DNA from: a virus
Reading direction: 5' to 3' (one strand)
Length of the DNA stretch: 64,000 nucleotides
IMG/VR virus record: IMGVR_UViG_3300021560_000014
Location: 1 to 64,000 of that record
Shown: one piece after another, positions 15,848 to 27,421 of the stretch
How positions within the stretch are numbered: position 1 is the first letter of the stretch
Layout of the letters: every line of letters begins with the position of its first letter
Program-made: the position numbers and the translations under genes
The notes under the pieces: model-generated
What the model was told of the DNA's origin: nothing
The model's database searches: none
Seen by the model: only the letters and a program-made list of their open reading frames with translations

Positions 15848-18800
15848 TCCGATCATCGTTCTTGAGGTCTTCGATCTGTTCCAGAAGAGCCTCAGGCCAA
15901 CTACAAGTTGGAAACCCCTTGGTGATGGTTGGCACCAGGAGCCTCCCACGCCTCAGGCTGTAGCTAGAGCCAAGGTCAAAGGAGAGAAAGCCCAAGGTAA
16001 GCAGTGGCAGATTCACGAGTTTGCCAATGACGATTCCGCCCGTGTTGCACATATCATCAACCAGCTGATGCCCAAGGCCCCCGAAGGCAAGCTGGTCATC
16101 CACAACGACAAGATTGCCCTTGCCCGTGAGGCTGTACCGCAAGGCTACAAGAAGCTGGAGGGCCAGCCTGCTGAGCGCCATCGTGAGCGCATGGCCGGTC
16201 TTCATGCTCTGCTCAATACCAGTCCCGAGCACTTTGAACATTTCGCGCCGAAGGGCGATGACAGTGCTGGGGAGGTCCGCTCCCGCAGTACCGGCAAGGG
16301 GCTTTTCAATCATCTCAATGAGCAAAAGGACTGGGTCCCGGCCCGACATCTGGTAAGTCATCTTGCCGGTCAGATTCCCTCTGAGGGCCTGACCCGAGGC
16401 GTGAAGGATGCTGTCCAGCTCAGTGATGACCGGCTCGAAGACGCCATCGGTGATGCCGGGCTCGTTCCTGAGCACGCTGATTCCTTGTTGGAGCGGCTCA
16501 AGTCCCGGCGTGAGGATTTGCGCAAGCTGCTGGCCAGTGGTGAACTGCCGGGCGATTCCAACGAGAATAAGGCTTTCGCCGACAAGTATGACCCTGAGAG
16601 CTATGAGCGCGGGCCGCTGGTCGGGGCACCGCCGAACATCAAGACGCCGAAGGATCGTGAGGCGCTCAAGAAGCAGCTGGGACAGCTGGCTGACAAGGGC
16701 GCATTCGGCGCTGGCTGGTATCGCGACAGCGCGCAGGCGGTACATGATCGTTTCGGCGGCAACCTGCCCAAGATTCAGAAATACCTGGCGCTGCTGGCTG
16801 CGTATTCGCCGCAGTCAACTCCCAACCCCAACACTGAAGCAGCTGAGCGTGCGTGGCAGCATCATGAAGCGGGCCTGCCCAAGGAGACCCTGCGCGGCGG
16901 CGGTACCAACGAGCAGGACGATCAGGCTCGCGCGCTGCTCTACCACAATCACTGGCACTCGGGGCTGAAGACCAACGCCTTTTACCGCAACCTGATGCAC
17001 TACATCAAGGGAGGCACTGACCGGCCTCCCACCGCTGACGAGATGGCCAGGGGCGAGCTGCAGCCGGTTACCGTGGACCGCTGGGCCGCCCGCTCCATCG
17101 GCTATCCGATTCAGCTTGGCGAAAGCGCTCAAGAGGGTGAGGCCAAAGAGCGGACGGTAAGTCCCAGCAACTATCGCTTCTCGCGGCAGATTCTGAATGA
17201 GGTGGCCCACGAGAAGAAGCTCTCCGCGCATGAGCTGCAGGAGCGGATGTGGGTCGCCGAGAAGGGTGGCGCACTCGCGCGCAAGAACCTGATTGCCAAC
17301 TACGCCAAGGCCAAGGGCGAAAGCGTCAAGGACCTTACCAAGCAGGTCAACGCGGGCAACATCCCGGCTGGACTGGCGCGCCCGCTGAAGAACATCAAGA
17401 TTGACCCCAAGGCGATGACGGCCTCGAAGGAGAGCTTCGCGACCGGCCTGCATGAGCTGGGAGGCCATGTGGTCTCCGATCTGACTCCTGACCCGAGCAT
17501 GCTCGATACCAGCCAGCACTCCCATGAGCACAGGCAGGAGCTTCACAATCGGCTGCTGGAAGCACTCCACCAGGACAAGCGGCTGCGGGCCGCTGAGTTG
17601 CTCGGTGTCGGCGGCGCTCCGGCCAAGGTCGGGGCTTCCGGTCACCTCTACGCGGGTGCCGTGATGCCTCGGTCGTTGATTTCCGTGGCCGCGCAGGAAG
17701 GCGTCCCGTCTGGTGATCTGGCTTTGATGCGCGGTCAGATCACCCCGAACTCGCTGCGGCGCATTCGTGGCATGGCCCATGGGCTGGCTCATCTTCTTGG
17801 CCAGAAGTCAGTCGAGTTCCATCGCCCGATTAATGTCCAGGGTTTTCGCAAGGAAGACCTGAACGGGACCAACCTCAAGACCGGCGAGCTGGCCCCGCAT
17901 GAGCTGCACGCCCTGCAGCAAGCCATCTCGCAGAAGCTGGGAACTCCCACGGTCCCGGTCCCTTACGGGGACGGCGTTTACGTCGTCAACCATTCAGGTC
18001 GTCCGAACGACGATTTTCATGAAGCAGTTAAAGCCACCGCCAATGAGGTCCTGAACCAGCCGCAAGTCAGCACCATCGGCGGCGCTGCTGGCCGTCAGCG
18101 GCGGCGGCCCGACATTGACGCCGGACGGTTCTATGCTTCCGGCGAACGTCTGGAGGATACCAGTGAAGGTCATCGACAAAGGGCCGTTGCCTCCCTCGGA
18201 CCCGCTCTTTCGGGAAGGTTTTTCGCTGAACACGCTCCACTCCTTAGACCCGTCTATGAGCAGTACGCCCGCGAGCACGGGGTCCCGCTCAACCTCCCGT
18301 CCGCGTATAGTGCTGGCGAGGAAGAACCAAAAAAGAAAGCCAGAAAGAAAGTAGCGGCCCTGGCACGGGCCTGGGGCTGGCTGACGCGAGGACGCGTCGA
18401 GGGGGAGGAGCCCTTCGCTACGCGAGACCCCAACGAAGCGCGCGAGCCATCCAATGTGCGAGACCCAGACGATGAGCGCGAGCCCCTCAGCACGCGAAAC
18501 CCGAATCTGCCGCGCGAGCCGATGTGGGGGCGAAGCCCAGACGAGACGCGTGACACCCTAAACTTGCGGCCCCGTTTCCTGCCCACCCTGGTGCTGAAGT
18601 CATGGTTACTGCCGGACGCGGAGGAAGAGGTTGAAGGCGAGGTCCAAAAATCGGGTGGACGCGCCGCCGACTTCTTTTCCTCCGCTCCTTTAACGGTGCT
18701 GAGCAAATCCATTGCCCCTCGGCCCAAGGCCCGTAAACCCCCTGGCGGCCTGAGCCGGATGATGTACAGCGATCCGGCGCTTAGCCAGTTCGACATGACC

Positions 18801-21158
18801 CGCGAGCAGGGCTACTCCAACCCGTGGTACAAGCTCAAGGCTGTGCGCCACAAGGGTGTCACCTACCTTGGCGCGAACCATCCTTCTGATCATCACGAGT
18901 TCATCGCCGACCGCATCAAGCGCAAAGTCCCCCGGCAGATGGATATGTCAGTGCCAGCTGTTGGCCATGAGAAGGCCAACATGCAGTACGGCTTCATCGG
19001 CCACGACCACCGCTTCTATACCATGAGCGAGATGGAGGACAAGGTTAAGGCCGGGGAGACCACGCTCGGCAAGTCGCTGCTGATTGTGCTCGAAAAGTCC
19101 GAGGTCGCCCACGTCCTGCACTACCAGCAGCCGGGCATCAGGCTGCCGGGGGCGACAACCAAAGAGCACCACGGCATGATGATCGGGACTGACAAGGACC
19201 ACAACATCATCGCCTCGCTGCACTATGATCACTACAAGACCCCTGGGGAGAAGGAGGGCAGCGGCATTCACGTCGCCTCGCTGCAATCGTCCTCGCCCTT
19301 CGCCGGGGCCGATCTGATGAAGCACATTGTGCATCACGCGGCCCGCAACCGTGCGGAGCTGCACGGTACGCCGGTTGCCAGCGGCAGCACGGGCCGGGTG
19401 CAGAACTATTACCATCACCTGGTCCGGCGCTATGGCGGCGCATCGCGGGCCGAGCTGATCAAGCCTGAGGGCAAGGAAGACATCCGTCATATCGGGGCCG
19501 ATGCAGTCAAGGACCTGAGCTTAGCGCCGGGCATGAAGCCGCCGCAGAAGCGCAAGCAGGTCAAGGTCAGCATGTCCGATTATCAGTACATCGCCGACCG
19601 CACCGATCCGGGCAAGGGCGTCAAGATTCACCCCGATAAGCCGCTGGAGCTGTACAAGGGCCACGGCAACGTGAACACGTCCGGGGTCAATACCCGCTCG
19701 CGCACTGAGGAAGAGAAACGCCGTCGGGCGCGCGATCCGATGATCGACCCCGACGAACTCGAAAACACGCCCTGGTACAACGACTCGGTGAAGAAATCAC
19801 TCAACGACCCGTACATCGCGGCGCGGGCGCTCAAGCACACACCGAGTGGGCGGGTATGGCAGCTGCCGGAGCATGAGACCCACCTCGACGGCGTCGCCCG
19901 GCTCTCAAAGCAGCACGGTCTCGATCATGAGGATTGGGAGGGCGGCTACGTCGGTCACGACGGGCTCTATTACAACTACGAGCAGCTGGGCGACCGGATG
20001 GAGGCGCACAGCAAGTGGAACCGAATCCGGCGTGGGCAGCGGATTAAGTTCAATGACGGGCAGGCGGTCAAGTTTGAGAAGTCACTCGCGGTCGTCCTGG
20101 CCAAGGCCGCCAAGATCATCCCCTTCCCGACAAAGCATCCCTTCGAGGCCGAGGCCAAGAAATACGGGGCGAAGCCTGAGGAGTACGCCCGTGTCCACAA
20201 GTTCTACGTCGGCGATCCTGAGAAGATCGACAACTATTACAAGAACATCAAGCCGGTGTGGAATAAGTCTGCCCGCCGCAAGCTGCACTACCGCAAGACC
20301 TTCCAGGGCTTCGACATCTCGATTGAGAACCGGCCTGGCAGCTACCGGCATTGGACCCATCCTGACGGCAGGCCGGGCAAGACCCTGATGCGCCGACCAT
20401 ATGGTTATATCAAGAATTCCGAGGGCCTCGACGGCGATCACGTCGATGTCTTCCTCGGGCCGAATGAGCAGTCGCCGACGGCCTATATCATCCACCAGCT
20501 GAAGGCCCCCGACTTCACGACATTCGATGAGGACAAGGTTATACTGGGAGCTGATTCAGCTGCTGAGGCTCAGCGCATCTACCTCGATCACTACGACGAC
20601 CCGCGCTTCTTCGGCGGTATGACCGCGATGCCCCTCGGTGAGTTCCGCCAGAAGGTCTTCGCGACTGAGGATCAGCCGCAGATGATTAAGAGTTTCCTGT
20701 ATCACGCGACCCTCTCGCCCAACTTGGGCGGCATTGTGAAGCATGGCCTTTTGGGCGAGGAGGAGCGGCCTCGTGAGGACGGCCTCGGCGCTCCGAGATC
20801 GAATTGGCATTTCTCAGATAATCCTGAGAACAAGGTGTGGCTGGCCGATAAGCGCTCGGGGGCCAGCTACTACGGCAAGATTGCTGCAAGGAACCATGCA
20901 AACAACTACGGGTACAAGCCCTATGTGCCGATGCTGCGGGTAAACAAGAAGCACGTCGAGGGCCTGGAAGACCGGGGTAGGGGAGAGTTCGTAGGCGCGC
21001 GTGTTCACCCTCAGCACCTGGAAATCCACATTCATGGCCAGTGGCACCCGCTGACTGGAGGTCACCCGGCGATTGAGTCGATAGCTGGTCATGAATGGGA
21101 CGAGGAAACCGAGAAGTCCTTCAGGAAGGGCGGCAAGAAAGAAGTCGCAAGGCGCTAG
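15840..21158 (+). CDS. Large polyvalent protein (HhH-like, GNAT-like, InPase-like and ADP-ribosyltransferase-like segments)
   Basis: 1772 aa. GWY...SPQ...KTNAF...VTVDRWAAR; ISIEN..GSYR...YGYI...DGDHVDVFLG...DEDKV; LYHAT...IVKHGL...VWLA. Confidence 0.75.
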   Translation: MVNPIIVLEVFDLFQKSLRPTTSWKPLGDGWHQEPPTPQAVARAKVKGEKAQGKQWQIHEFANDDSARVAHIINQLMPKAPEGKLVIHNDKIALAREAVPQGYKKLEGQPAERHRERMAGLHALLNTSPEHFEHFAPKGDDSAGEVRSRSTGKGLFNHLNEQKDWVPARHLVSHLAGQIPSEGLTRGVKDAVQLSDDRLEDAIGDAGLVPEHADSLLERLKSRREDLRKLLASGELPGDSNENKAFADKYDPESYERGPLVGAPPNIKTPKDREALKKQLGQLADKGAFGAGWYRDSAQAVHDRFGGNLPKIQKYLALLAAYSPQSTPNPNTEAAERAWQHHEAGLPKETLRGGGTNEQDDQARALLYHNHWHSGLKTNAFYRNLMHYIKGGTDRPPTADEMARGELQPVTVDRWAARSIGYPIQLGESAQEGEAKERTVSPSNYRFSRQILNEVAHEKKLSAHELQERMWVAEKGGALARKNLIANYAKAKGESVKDLTKQVNAGNIPAGLARPLKNIKIDPKAMTASKESFATGLHELGGHVVSDLTPDPSMLDTSQHSHEHRQELHNRLLEALHQDKRLRAAELLGVGGAPAKVGASGHLYAGAVMPRSLISVAAQEGVPSGDLALMRGQITPNSLRRIRGMAHGLAHLLGQKSVEFHRPINVQGFRKEDLNGTNLKTGELAPHELHALQQAISQKLGTPTVPVPYGDGVYVVNHSGRPNDDFHEAVKATANEVLNQPQVSTIGGAAGRQRRRPDIDAGRFYASGERLEDTSEGHRQRAVASLGPALSGRFFAEHAPLLRPVYEQYAREHGVPLNLPSAYSAGEEEPKKKARKKVAALARAWGWLTRGRVEGEEPFATRDPNEAREPSNVRDPDDEREPLSTRNPNLPREPMWGRSPDETRDTLNLRPRFLPTLVLKSWLLPDAEEEVEGEVQKSGGRAADFFSSAPLTVLSKSIAPRPKARKPPGGLSRMMYSDPALSQFDMTREQGYSNPWYKLKAVRHKGVTYLGANHPSDHHEFIADRIKRKVPRQMDMSVPAVGHEKANMQYGFIGHDHRFYTMSEMEDKVKAGETTLGKSLLIVLEKSEVAHVLHYQQPGIRLPGATTKEHHGMMIGTDKDHNIIASLHYDHYKTPGEKEGSGIHVASLQSSSPFAGADLMKHIVHHAARNRAELHGTPVASGSTGRVQNYYHHLVRRYGGASRAELIKPEGKEDIRHIGADAVKDLSLAPGMKPPQKRKQVKVSMSDYQYIADRTDPGKGVKIHPDKPLELYKGHGNVNTSGVNTRSRTEEEKRRRARDPMIDPDELENTPWYNDSVKKSLNDPYIAARALKHTPSGRVWQLPEHETHLDGVARLSKQHGLDHEDWEGGYVGHDGLYYNYEQLGDRMEAHSKWNRIRRGQRIKFNDGQAVKFEKSLAVVLAKAAKIIPFPTKHPFEAEAKKYGAKPEEYARVHKFYVGDPEKIDNYYKNIKPVWNKSARRKLHYRKTFQGFDISIENRPGSYRHWTHPDGRPGKTLMRRPYGYIKNSEGLDGDHVDVFLGPNEQSPTAYIIHQLKAPDFTTFDEDKVILGADSAAEAQRIYLDHYDDPRFFGGMTAMPLGEFRQKVFATEDQPQMIKSFLYHATLSPNLGGIVKHGLLGEEERPREDGLGAPRSNWHFSDNPENKVWLADKRSGASYYGKIAARNHANNYGYKPYVPMLRVNKKHVEGLEDRGRGEFVGARVHPQHLEIHIHGQWHPLTGGHPAIESIAGHEWDEETEKSFRKGGKKEVARR
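18404..18552 (+). ncRNA. TIGR-like array 4 (4 units) embedded in frame in the 1772-aa ORF
   Basis: GAGCC cttcgctac GCGAGACCC caacgaagc GCGCGAGCC atccaatgt GCGAGACCC agacgatga GCGCGAGCC cctcagcac GCGAAACCC gaatctgcc GCGCGAGCC gatgtgggg GCGAAGCCC agacgagac GCGTG. Confidence 0.85.
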
Positions 21159-23317: not shown

Positions 23318-23911
23318 ATGGCAGCCGTTCTTGCAAAAGAGATCGTGCTGAGCGAGAAGGACGTTAAGCGCTTCCTCGCCATCTTCGACACGATCAAGAA
23401 GGGTAGCGGCTGCTGGCTGTGGCCAAAGTCGGCTCCTAATAGCTACGGGCGTTTTCATGTAGAGGGTAAGGGAAGCTACAAAGCTAGCCGCATTGCTTAT
23501 TACCTCTTTGTCGAAAAATCCCTTTTGCCGTCTGATCTGGTTCTCCATTCCTGTGACAATCCGCCCTGCGTCAGACCGTTCCACTTGAGAAAAGGAACTC
23601 ACAAGCAAAATCAGCAGGACTGTGTCGTGAAAGGGCGCAAGCGCGTAGCTGTAGGAGATCGCCACTGGTCTCGAAGACACCCTGAGCTTGTGGCAAGCGG
23701 TGCGCGGCATGGAACAAGGACGCGGCCCGACCGTATCGCACGAGGAGAGCAGCGTGGGATGAACGGTTTGAAGGCAGCGCAGGTTCTAGAGATACGTCAG
23801 CTGTATGGGCAGGAGAACCATTTGTCGCAGCATCAGCTGGCTCGGAAGTTTGGGGTTACGGCGATGACGATCAACCGGGCTCTCCGTCGTCAGACGTGGA
23901 GTCATATATGA
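23318..23911 (+). CDS. HNH homing endonuclease
   Basis: [34 protein letters not shown]-terminal HTH; visibly more AT-rich than neighbours. Confidence 0.9.
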   Translation: MAAVLAKEIVLSEKDVKRFLAIFDTIKKGSGCWLWPKSAPNSYGRFHVEGKGSYKASRIAYYLFVEKSLLPSDLVLHSCDNPPCVRPFHLRKGTHKQNQQDCVVKGRKRVAVGDRHWSRRHPELVASGARHGTRTRPDRIARGEQRGMNGLKAAQVLEIRQLYGQENHLSQHQLARKFGVTAMTINRALRRQTWSHI

Positions 23912-25335
23912 TCACGGGGATAACTGTCTCGGTTGATAGAACATCATACAGCCGCTACGGTGACGACTTCCCCATAGTCACAATCACCGGCAAGGCGGCG
24001 GGCGCGGTCGGCGGTGAGCAGGTCGTGATCACGCTCTCGCGCACGGTGCTCTCTGGGCAGTACCAGCTGTTTATCACAACAGTGATAGTCCCAGCTGGGG
24101 GCGCGTTCACCGACACCATCGATCTCCGCACGGTCAAGGACACCAACGGCTTCAGCTCGGCTAGTATCTCGAAGGAATTTAACGACTACACCGTCACCGC
24201 CTCGGACGCGACTGACCCGCTGACCTTTGCCACCACCAACTTCAGCGTGCTGCCGTTCACGGTCGATCAGGTCAAAGCCCGCTGGTGCGCTGGGCTGCCG
24301 CTCATCACCTATGAGAAGCTCCAGGCCGTCAATCAGCCGGTCCAGGTGACCGGCGTCACCCTGGGGCAGCCTTCCTTCGGTTCCATCGTCGGCCCGTACC
24401 AGCTGCAATTCTCGGCCTCTCCCACGCCCTCGATCTCGTGGACCAGCGGCGCATTGCTCGGCGGCCTCGCGATGCCCGGCACCCAGGTGCCGATTCCGGC
24501 CAGCGGGACCTACATCCTGCCCGACGTGATCGGACGGGGCGCGATCCCGGCGACGGTCAATTTCGCCCAGCTGCCAACGACTGCGGCCAGCGACACCATC
24601 TATGTCGGCTTCGGCACCATCACCGATGAGGCCATCATCCGCGAGATCATCTCGATGACGGCGCAGATCCAGGAGTTCATGAACATCCTGTTCGAGCCGA
24701 CCTACATCACGACCCAGAACATGCTGGAGCTGGAGCCACTCATCCCGACCGTGGTCGAGAAGATCGGGATGGCGATCAACTTCTACAAGCCTGACAACTG
24801 GCTCAAGTGGCTGGAGTTCAAGTGCCCCTACATGCCGCTGCTGAAGTTCTTCCAGCTCTCGGGCTACTTCAACAAGACCAAGGCCATCGACATCGACGAG
24901 GAGCATCTTATCTCCTTCGACGAGCGCAGCGCTGAGGTTCAATTTGTCCCGTCCAACCTCGCGGTGGTGAACTCGTTCTTCATCGGGCCGGGCGTCTATA
25001 TCATGTTTTTCAACCAGATATACGTGCCCCAGTTCTGGAACTATTACGTGGTGTGCGGCTACCGCAACCTGCCAGCTGCCATCGCTGACTATATAGCCAA
25101 ACGTGTCGCCATCGACCTGCTCAACATTGCCGGGCAGGCTCGCTACCCGGCAGGCATGGCCGGTCAATCGACCTCGCGCGACGGTATCAGTGAGTCAACC
25201 TCGATCCTTGCCGGAGTTTACAAGACCTACATCGATCAGTACGAGCAGGACTTGGGCAGGACGCCGGATGGCCAGGACCAGATGATGAAGAGCCTCAGGA
25301 ACCGTTTTCGCGGGCTCGCTTTCACCACCCTGTGA
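23908..25335 (+). CDS. Putative head-tail connector or neck protein
   Basis: C-terminal LPAAIADYIAK...AG...S.S.DG.S.S resembles myovirus neck proteins. Confidence 0.6.
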   Translation: MITGITVSVDRTSYSRYGDDFPIVTITGKAAGAVGGEQVVITLSRTVLSGQYQLFITTVIVPAGGAFTDTIDLRTVKDTNGFSSASISKEFNDYTVTASDATDPLTFATTNFSVLPFTVDQVKARWCAGLPLITYEKLQAVNQPVQVTGVTLGQPSFGSIVGPYQLQFSASPTPSISWTSGALLGGLAMPGTQVPIPASGTYILPDVIGRGAIPATVNFAQLPTTAASDTIYVGFGTITDEAIIREIISMTAQIQEFMNILFEPTYITTQNMLELEPLIPTVVEKIGMAINFYKPDNWLKWLEFKCPYMPLLKFFQLSGYFNKTKAIDIDEEHLISFDERSAEVQFVPSNLAVVNSFFIGPGVYIMFFNQIYVPQFWNYYVVCGYRNLPAAIADYIAKRVAIDLLNIAGQARYPAGMAGQSTSRDGISESTSILAGVYKTYIDQYEQDLGRTPDGQDQMMKSLRNRFRGLAFTTL

Positions 25336-25371
25336 CACGCTCGACCTTTGGGGCTCGCGTAAATCATGGCT
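25336..25371 (-). ncRNA. Solitary TIGR-like 36-nt unit
   Basis: Reverse complement reads AGCC atgatttac GCGAGCCCC aaaggtcga GCGTG. Confidence 0.7.
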
Positions 25372-25487
25372 GTAGATACCGGGAGTCCAGCTCGGGATTC
25401 CGGACCCCCGGCTCGTGTTGGAAGGGAGTTCTGCCGAACGGGTTGATCTTAGCAGGCCGGACACCCGAAAGTACATAAAATGGAACG

Positions 25488-25760
25488 GTGGGGAGAATGA
25501 AGGTAGTTAACATCCAAAACGATGGCTATGACGGCAATGAGAGTGCGATGGAAGTGCAAATCAGGTTCCAGGCCGAGGAGTCCAGCGGCTGGATGGGGCC
25601 GGAGGCCGAGAAGTGGTTCCTGGCCCTGGCCAATACCTGGTTCACCATCGCGGCCAGCCAGACCCCGCCCCTGGCCGCCGACGTGGTGATAGACTTCCTG
25701 GAGAAGCTGGCGGTCCTGATGGGCATTCCGATTGAGGACATCACCACCCTGCCCCGGTAG
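25488..25760 (+). CDS. Hypothetical protein
   Basis: 90-aa ORF; GGAG before ATG 25497. Confidence 0.55.
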   Translation: MGRMKVVNIQNDGYDGNESAMEVQIRFQAEESSGWMGPEAEKWFLALANTWFTIAASQTPPLAADVVIDFLEKLAVLMGIPIEDITTLPR

Positions 25761-25762
25761 GT

Positions 25763-25796
25763 CGTACAGAGTAGTGGCCCGTACAGAGTAGTGGCC
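25763..25796 (+). repeat. 17-bp tandem direct repeat
   Basis: CGTACAGAGTAGTGGCC x2, immediately before the AGGAGG RBS of the 25814 gene. Confidence 0.85.
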
Positions 25797-25813
25797 GGTA
25801 GGAGGCCCCACCC

Positions 25814-26569
25814 ATGGTGCTGATTGACCCTGCCCGCGAAGCTGATTTCGTCCGCCGCCGAGGCGACCTCGTCCTTTATCGCCGTGCCTTCAAATGCTCC
25901 TGCACCATGAACCCCGGCGACGACCCCGACGCCAACCGGGCCTCGGTCAACTGCACGGTCTGCGACGGCCTCGGCTTCACCTATGGGCCGCCGACCCCAA
26001 TCATCGTCACCATCGTCAACATCACCTATCAGAAGCAGCTGCTGGACTCGGGCGTGGCCGCTCCCGGCGACCTGCTGATGAGCCTCTCGCCATTCGAGTC
26101 CAACCTGGTCTCGTCTTACGATGTCATTAATTTTACTTATATCCTGGGCGAGCCATATGAGGGCGACACGGTCAAGCGGACCAACCCCGGCCCGGACCTG
26201 CTGAGCTACCCTCCGGTGCTGGTGTTCTCCTGCTTCTTCATCGACCAGAGCAACAACTACACGATGGTGAATTATCAGCAGGGCGTGGATTTCGTCATCT
26301 CCAGCCGCAACCTGACGTGGCTGCCGGGCAAGGGTCCGCTCGTCGGCGCGCCCTACCAGATCAAGTACAACTGCCGCTACGACTGGGAGGTGTACGTGGA
26401 TGCGAGCGTGCGCTTCGAGGTCGGCCACTCGCTCGGCCAGAAGGCCATCCTGCGCAAGCGCGAGGTGCCGGTGCCGATCTTCACCGGCCAAATCGGCAGC
26501 GGCATATCGCGGACGCAGGCGACCTCCCGCTCGGCGGCGACGGTCGCGCTCACGGTTAACCGGGCATAA
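25814..26569 (+). CDS. Putative head completion or neck protein
   Basis: RG..V.Y..A.KCSC...CTVCDG.G pattern of large-myovirus neck proteins. Confidence 0.65.
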   Translation: MVLIDPAREADFVRRRGDLVLYRRAFKCSCTMNPGDDPDANRASVNCTVCDGLGFTYGPPTPIIVTIVNITYQKQLLDSGVAAPGDLLMSLSPFESNLVSSYDVINFTYILGEPYEGDTVKRTNPGPDLLSYPPVLVFSCFFIDQSNNYTMVNYQQGVDFVISSRNLTWLPGKGPLVGAPYQIKYNCRYDWEVYVDASVRFEVGHSLGQKAILRKREVPVPIFTGQIGSGISRTQATSRSAATVALTVNRA

Positions 26570-27312
26570 TGGCCAGCGAGCTTGAAGTCAGCGGCATCGA
26601 CGAGCTGATCGCCCAGCTGAACCAGCTCGACCGCGCCGCGCAGCTGCCGTCCTTCACGGTGCCCGGTCCCATCGGCCAGCCGCAGGCCCAGCGTCCCCAT
26701 GGCGAGAGCCGCAGCGAGCTGGGGGCCGAGTCCTTCGCGGACGGCTTCCCGGCCTTCGACATGAAGCCCGGCCTGCTGCGCTCGCCCAAGGCCAAGATCG
26801 GCAAGCAGGGCCAGCGCTACATCGACGTGCCGATGATGAACCGGCAGTCGGTCACCGGCAAGCCCGACATCCGCCGCCTGTCCGCGCAGTGGAAGGACGA
26901 CAAGGGCCGTCAGCACGGCACGGCCTCCTACAAGTGGATTCACCCCGGCGTCAAACCCGAGGGCGAGGCCGGGCCGATTGCGCTGCCCTCCAGGCAGGCT
27001 ATCCCGCCAATCACGCTCAGGCGCAGGCAGGCCATCCCGCCAATCACCCTGGAGCAGCAGCCAATTGACCTGAGCCCCGAGCAGGCCGAGCCAGGGACCG
27101 GACCATATGAGCTGAGCGCTGAGCAGGCAGTGCCCCCGATCATGCTGACCAGCCAGATAACGGAGCTGGTCGATGAGGTGGCCTATGGCTCAATCGAGAT
27201 CGCGCCGGAGCAGGCCGGAGGGCTGGTGACGCTGCTCGGCATGATGATGGATGAGCCGAGCCTGCGGAGGTTCAAACGGGCGCTGGCAAGCCCGCCCAAG
27301 CGCAAACGCTAA
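26569..27312 (+). CDS. Putative neck or tail-completion protein
   Basis: G..AFDMKPGLLRSPKAK...YIDVP...WIHPG. Confidence 0.6.
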   Translation: MASELEVSGIDELIAQLNQLDRAAQLPSFTVPGPIGQPQAQRPHGESRSELGAESFADGFPAFDMKPGLLRSPKAKIGKQGQRYIDVPMMNRQSVTGKPDIRRLSAQWKDDKGRQHGTASYKWIHPGVKPEGEAGPIALPSRQAIPPITLRRRQAIPPITLEQQPIDLSPEQAEPGTGPYELSAEQAVPPIMLTSQITELVDEVAYGSIEIAPEQAGGLVTLLGMMMDEPSLRRFKRALASPPKRKR

Positions 27313-27316
27313 GCCT

Positions 27317-27421
27317 GCGGCCCCGTTTCCTGCCCACCCAAGACCACCCAAGCCTGCGGCCCCGTTTCCTGCCCACCCACGCCGTGGCCACACCTTCGTT
27401 GCGGCCCCGTTTCCTGCCCAC
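27317..27421 (+). repeat. Three copies of the 21-bp motif GCGGCCCCGTTTCCTGCCCAC
   Basis: Exact copies at 27317, 27356 and 27401. Confidence 0.95.

Follow-up and report, generated by a model that had tools for sequence, protein, structure and literature searches.

The locus and its flanking gene

The DNA analysed here (the window) comprises the initial 64 kb of one virus record of 105,936 bp (GC content 62%), obtained from a soil metagenome; the same phage occurs at low depth in a second soil metagenome. Directly behind the stop codon of a plus-strand structural gene in the window, a single 36-nt module of the dual-repeat TIGR type is found on the minus strand, with a hairpin close to its 5' end. 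The features of the locus are as follows.

23896-25335, plus strand: structural gene of 479 aa, the TGA of which (25333-25335) abuts the unit at 25336-25371 with no gap
25336-25371, minus strand: lone dual-repeat TIGR unit, 36 nt, the length expected of one mature tigRNA
25368-25371, minus strand: 5' half of the edge repeat, AGCC; the preceding bases TCTAC are non-repeat, not GCGYG
25359-25367, minus strand: spacer A, ATGATTTAC, 9 nt, with no second copy in the genome
25350-25358, minus strand: loop repeat, GCGAGCCCC; the same variant is present in one array unit, at genome positions 77316-77351
25341-25349, minus strand: spacer B, AAAGGTCGA, 9 nt, with no second copy in the genome
25336-25340, minus strand: 3' half of the edge repeat, GCGTG; the next bases are the complement of the stop codon, not AGCC
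25378-25412: hairpin with 13-bp arms, 6 nt from the 5' end of the unit

[quoted passage not shown] Its name for the adjoining gene, a neck gene, is not: the sole match of the 479-aa protein was a weak PHROG hit to 'tail fiber', and no Pfam family was matched. Homologues of this protein (P0002-P0005) are 45-48% identical, and the position of its stop codon is ancestral, because the C-terminus (...AFTTL) is conserved and the relatives also end in ...FTTL. The start of the gene is overlapped by a plus-strand HNH endonuclease gene at 23318-23911.

TIGR arrays of the genome and their boundaries

The TIGR-Tas system, published in 2025, binds DNA under the guidance of RNA (Faure et al. 2025, Science, PMC12045711). 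TIGR arrays have truncated outer edges and are cleaved in the middle of the edge repeat, and the 36-nt tigRNAs span from mid-edge to mid-edge (Faure et al. 2025, PMC12045711). In the present genome about 110 units are distributed over 12 arrays (2, 4, 4, 6, 6, 7, 8, 9, 11, 11, 18 and 28 units) and 2 lone units, giving 14 loci. The window holds four plus-strand arrays with a 36-nt period, in which GCGYGAGCC alternates with a GCGrrrCCC-like repeat and variable stretches of about 9 nt lie between them; one plus-strand and seven minus-strand arrays follow beyond the window. The arrays of the window are listed below.

2712-3035, plus strand: TIGR array 1, 9 units, AGCC start, GCGTG end
4161-4571, plus strand: TIGR array 2, about 11 units, start in the TGA of the upstream gene, GCGTA end
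6088-7091, plus strand: TIGR array 3, about 28 units, start in the TGA of the terminase gene, GCGTG end
18409-18552, plus strand: TIGR array 4, 4 units, inside a 1772-aa ORF, GCGTG end

At the starts of arrays 2 and 3 the sequence TGAGCC (4159-4161 and 6086-6088) makes the upstream stop codon double as part of the truncated edge repeat. Array 2 also contains four tandem 18-nt half units at 4296-4364, and in the array at 96914-97202 two units carry identical spacer pairs (L002 12988-13023 and 13059-13094).

Inspection of both flanks of the 14 loci showed AGCC at each start, preceded by non-repeat sequence; the one exception is the array at 96914-97202, where a full edge lies upstream. At the 3' ends GCGTG (7 loci), GCGTA (2) or GCGCG (5) is followed by a non-repeat flank. 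The earlier statement that every array starts with the AGCC half and ends with the GCGT(G) half therefore holds for the four arrays of the window and for all others of the genome, and the deduction drawn from it, a unit boundary inside the edge repeat, fits all 14 TIGR loci, being a published property rather than a new one. Both repeats have the form GCG-N4-CC and are alike at start and end, that is, pseudo-symmetric; from this symmetry (GCG-AAAC-CC versus GCG-YGAG-CC) the boundary between YG and AG falls in the exact middle of the edge repeat. The pairs G2-Y35, C3-G34 and G16-C21, expected from the TasR structure, are possible in 65/65 array units and in the unit at 25336-25371; no covariation is seen at these pairs, since the columns hardly vary. 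The boxes are CG/CC(A) here as against UG/CCA in TasR arrays.

Targets in the phage's own genome were sought for 85 spacer pairs in both half-site arrangements. None was found at two or fewer mismatches, and matches with three mismatches did not exceed the control level.

The lone unit compared with array units and with chance

In the unit at 25336-25371 none of the 16 constrained positions is altered and the two spacers measure exactly 9 nt each; like most units, it has an A behind both CC boxes. Its spacer pair matches that of any other unit at 10/18 positions at best, which is background, and hence is no copy; its flanks are likewise unique within the genome. Neither flank holds decayed units or half repeats in a matrix scan, where the next best score was 6 bits. 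The tandem repetition that characterizes a TIGR array is accordingly missing at this site, which is a single unit without even a degenerate neighbour. The unit lies on the same strand as tas, 62 kb away, and is antisense to the surrounding late operon. The initial annotation had described it as opposite in orientation to the other arrays; this stands within the window and fails genome-wide, as seven arrays beyond 64 kb and tas itself are also on the minus strand.

Within the window, 34 sites match the pattern AGCC-N9-GCG-N4-CC-N9-GCGYG, and 25336-25371 is the sole minus-strand site among them. The chance expectation for 64 kb, proposed earlier as a check, was computed: 100 dinucleotide shuffles of the window gave 0.00 matches against the 34 observed, so that the pattern does not occur at chance frequency, and the product of base frequencies predicts about 0.01 matches per window. 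A position weight matrix was built from 61 in-array units (about 28 bits). Outside the arrays of the whole genome, it scored 32.9 bits at 1333-1368, 30.2 bits at 25336-25371 and 6.0 bits at the third-best site. Genomes simulated 600 times with Markov models of orders 1, 3 and 5 gave best matrix scores of 10 +/- 3, none above 23. A sequence-only Infernal model from 65 in-array units, with both lone units excluded, matched 25336-25371 over its full length (model positions 1-36) at 18.2 bits with E=4e-4, and 1333-1368 with E=2.4e-4; all 109 other matches up to E=10 fall within arrays.

A chance match in GC-rich sequence is thus an extremely improbable account of the unit: the pattern was indeed defined post hoc, after the arrays had been seen, and GCG and CC are frequent in a genome of this composition, but about a hundredth of a match is expected per window, none of the 100 shuffles or 600 simulations came near the score, no site outside the arrays lies between 6 and 30 bits, and the Infernal E-value is low. 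The element at 25336-25371 is almost certainly a true TIGR unit, and very probably forms a real TIGR locus of a single unit (an 'array' with N=1) within the phage's dual-repeat TIGR-TasA system.

Lone units elsewhere

The other high-scoring site of this genome and the lone units of other phages are listed here.

1333-1368, plus strand: second solitary TIGR unit of this genome, 32.9-bit matrix score, Infernal E=2.4e-4
20169-20204 of record G011, plus strand, all G011 arrays being on the minus strand: lone unit, 34.0 bits
5234-5269 of record G013: lone unit, 32.5 bits
783-818 of record G014: lone unit, 23.6 bits

The second unit, which the initial annotation of 25336-25371 did not mention, lies in frame in a linker of a ribonucleotide-reductase-like ORF (1-2010), where it is read as SPESREVHMQGV. 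In the region 1315-1446 it sits between antisense copies of a 23-nt motif, each translated as APFPAH, and a fourth copy is located at 1891-1905.

Eighteen other viral records contain the same edge repeat, and the 16 of them that were searched for a homologue of the 479-aa protein had none. Record-specific matrices were used for the other phages, model R1 being too specific for their loops. Lone units apart from arrays were detected in 3/5 of the other viral records scanned, each scoring above all 100 simulations. The units of these other phages occupy intergenic spacers in sense orientation, a setting that makes co-transcription likely.

Of the 23-nt motif GGTGGGCAGGAAACGGGGCCGCA the genome contains 40 copies, and 30 are on the minus strand irrespective of the direction of nearby genes; copies in the window include those at 6931-6945, 7113-7127, 18572-18586 and 27323-27421. 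It is fused to the first AGCC of arrays at genome positions 76758, 76860 and 89001, lies 9 nt ahead of the first AGCC at 73454 and 6270, and stands antisense, 12-20 nt past the last unit, at 7113, 18572 and 1387. A stretch of 31 identical nt, consisting of spacer-like bases and an antisense motif, is shared by 1372-1402 and 6916-6946, which follow the lone unit 1333-1368 and the array 3 unit 6878-6913, respectively. A search of viral contigs with the 22-nt motif gave no match. The 23-nt motif is not simply a promoter or simply a terminator, given that convergent as well as divergent gene junctions carry it. The shared 31-nt stretch suggests that units can be moved or copied along with a copy of the motif; the proximity of motifs to array ends was not used as evidence of joint mobility, since both are confined to the small intergenic fraction.

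The Tas protein

The sole Tas-like gene of the genome is a single copy at 87586-88620 on the minus strand, located between arrays. One Tas gene therefore stands for 14 dispersed loci with about 110 units. The Tas protein itself has no Pfam match, and its best solved relative is 9MTY (phmmer E=6e-4), the TasR complex of Faure et al. 2025 (PMC12045711). With a profile of 27 Tas homologues, 9MTY was found at E=2e-28, the TasH structures at 7e-15 and IS110-family transposases at about 1e-5; PF02371 is present in several of the homologues. As the N-terminus has no RuvC or HNH part, the protein is assigned to the TasA type, a nuclease-less protein with a Nop domain.

Cleavage of the edge repeat has been attributed to a Tyr/His pair of the Nop domain, and Tas proteins without a nuclease repress transcription under RNA guidance (Xu et al. 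2026, bioRxiv 10.64898/2026.09.09.750476). Most relatives of the present Tas carry the C-terminal motif PY...GHxH...PP, in which the Tyr-to-His spacing equals that of the SpTasH catalytic pair Y289/H296. In the C-terminal 40 residues, the Tas of this phage (L002 3586-4620, minus strand) and its two nearest relatives have instead PW...HHY with a 6-residue insert and Trp for Tyr, and TaTasR (9MTY) likewise has Trp at that position. Self-processing by this Tas is uncertain because its clade has Trp in place of Tyr.

Relation to known guide systems

The locus most closely resembles the dual-repeat TIGR/TasA systems (Faure 2025, Xu 2026), with which it shares the 36-nt succession of edge, spacer A, loop and spacer B, the 9+9-nt spacers, the GCG...CC pseudo-symmetry, the outer edges truncated mid-repeat, a nuclease-less Nop-domain Tas and the phage setting. 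Published TIGR units are recognized by spacers of 8-12 nt and box-like repeat ends, and the unit at 25336-25371 has both, with spacers of 9+9 nt. It differs in that dual-repeat TIGR/TasA loci comprise 5-15 tandem units with tas adjacent, whereas here one unit stands 62 kb from tas, antisense to an operon and without a terminator behind it, and one Tas serves all 14 loci.

Three other types of guide locus share some of these properties. Stem-loop tigRNAs (Xu 2026) also need not adjoin tas and may lie inside coding sequence, but they are of a hairpin type processed at a CUU motif, with a Tas that lacks the Tyr/His loop, whereas the present unit is of the dual-repeat type. VIPR solo or orphan vrRNAs (bioRxiv 10.64898/2026.10.15.759431) are likewise single phage silencing guides apart from the effector locus; their GGYNN repeat and protein are unrelated, and the orphans reside on effector-less elements as decoys or weapons, in contrast to the effector encoded in the same genome here. 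CRISPR mini-arrays and solitary phage repeat units are also minimal guide loci away from effector genes, but CRISPR repeats and spacers are each longer than 20 nt, with one spacer per unit and full end repeats, as against 9-nt repeats, two 9-nt spacers and half outer repeats here. A CRISPR array (23-50-nt repeats, single spacers of similar length, full terminal repeats, cas genes) was ruled out for the arrays by the 9-nt repeats of two kinds, the 9-nt spacers and the terminal half repeats.

The boundary rule is thus already published, and the unit at 25336-25371 adds no new mechanism by itself. What is new for a TIGR system is the layout, a lone, distant and antisense single unit, which is a modest clue to how arrays arise.

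Expression and possible function

By analogy with the published systems, transcription of the minus strand would be predicted to yield an RNA whose two GCG...CC repeat elements are bound by a TasA dimer and which might then be cut or trimmed between YG and AG. An 18-bp target would be recognized by the two 9-nt spacers, one pairing with each strand, and the bound TasA complex would block transcription.

Signals for such expression were searched around the unit. No sigma-70-like promoter was recognised near it, no terminator-like hairpin was found behind it on its own strand, the 3' side being antisense to the end of a coding region, the nearest copy of the 23-nt motif is more than 1.8 kb away, and no Rfam family matches at 25336-25371. 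The hairpin at 25378-25412 folds as minus-strand RNA with -25.3 kcal/mol and z -3.4, including three G-U pairs, compared with z -0.2 on the plus strand. Its stability solely as minus-strand RNA hints at a minus-strand transcript and speaks against a silent unit.

An active stand-alone guide gene is the strongest of the alternatives and can be proposed tentatively: a minus-strand transcript comprising the hairpin and the unit would be matured to supply an extra TasA guide in trans, perhaps timed apart from the guides of the late operon. The perfect unit and the strand-specific hairpin are consistent with it, as are three tandem minus-strand copies of the 23-nt motif at 27323-27421, 1.9 kb upstream on that strand, and the sense orientation and likely co-transcription of the intergenic lone units elsewhere. 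It is opposed by the missing promoter and terminator, by the ambiguous role of a motif that occurs at both kinds of junction, and by the truncation of both edges. Minimal arrays were processed solely with full edge repeats (Faure et al. 2025, PMC12045711); since the unit has no full edge on either side, its maturation is doubtful even if it is transcribed. This requirement of minimal arrays, together with the lack of visible expression signals, makes active use as a guide the lesser possibility. The unit is therefore somewhat more readily regarded as silent or weakly expressed, and its expression and loading as a putative guide can be entertained with reservation.

A quite different proposal, that the site is a plus-strand element (a 3' UTR or terminator of the upstream gene, or an antisense to a tigRNA) with a TIGR likeness and no guide role, is very unlikely. 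The plus strand is surely transcribed late in infection, and the unit is flanked by a stop codon and a hairpin, at a place occupied in a distant relative by a terminator hairpin alone. The spacers, however, are absent from other units, so that no tigRNA exists to which the element could be antisense; as plus-strand RNA the hairpin is weak, and it lacks a U tract; no Rfam family matches, and the unit model is matched over its whole length and in a strand-specific manner.

Origin of the lone unit

The one-unit locus was probably placed as a single 36-nt module by the array-building process rather than left as the last survivor of a larger array. Single placement is favoured by the absence of degenerate flanking units, the conserved stop codon that the unit abuts, the unique flanks, the spacer pair that is not copied from elsewhere, and the recurrence of lone units in other phages.

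The opposite course, in which a larger minus-strand array was lost by deletion down to its last unit, is unlikely. The array sizes of the genome do form a continuum from 2 to 28 units, and internal duplications and breaks occur in arrays. Yet no half repeat or degenerate unit remains in either flank, a conserved coding end forms one of the two flanks, and recombination between full edge repeats presumably cannot shrink an array below two units.

Comparison with relatives bears on the single placement of the module. In the distant relative L005 (36% identity), a strong terminator hairpin lies 6 nt past the homologous stop codon with no unit between. Judged from the sequences, this arrangement fits an insertion between stop codon and hairpin, L005 being too distant to count as an empty site. 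Neither a joint nor a deletion at 25335/25372 was found in contigs of the two soil metagenomes, those listed for the second run lying away from the site. No relatives were recovered by blastn of 24000-27000 in public phage genomes, or in viral contigs by the 479-aa protein alone and a 7-sequence profile. In the metagenome relatives L004-L013 (26-37% identity), which are too distant for site comparison, no TIGR units were found.

A transposon-like miniature mobile repeat was rejected, as the unit has no inverted ends and no consistent target-site duplication was found flanking any of the five lone units. A reverse transcriptase (PF00078) is absent from this record, which is about 76% complete. 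The arrays of this genome also grow by local duplication.

A further proposal extends single placement to the arrays as a whole. Lone 36-nt modules with mature-tigRNA ends would be the seeds by which TIGR arrays are born and extended, full edges would be mere junctions, and the units at 25336-25371 and 1333-1368 would be recent seedings in one or the other orientation, perhaps from a processed tigRNA that had been copied. This proposal is speculative and has a low probability.

Significance

Because published array catalogues were built around tas loci, lone units far from tas would be missed, and the lone units found here and in three other phage records imply that searches near tas under-count guide content. 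The emergence and growth of TIGR arrays and their gain of spacers are a named open question (Faure 2025, Xu 2026, and the 2026 NAR paper on TasH), and, given close relatives or population data, the sites of lone units would be concrete places to look for array gain or loss. If lone modules seed arrays, they would provide a first handle on spacer acquisition, which those three papers call unknown.
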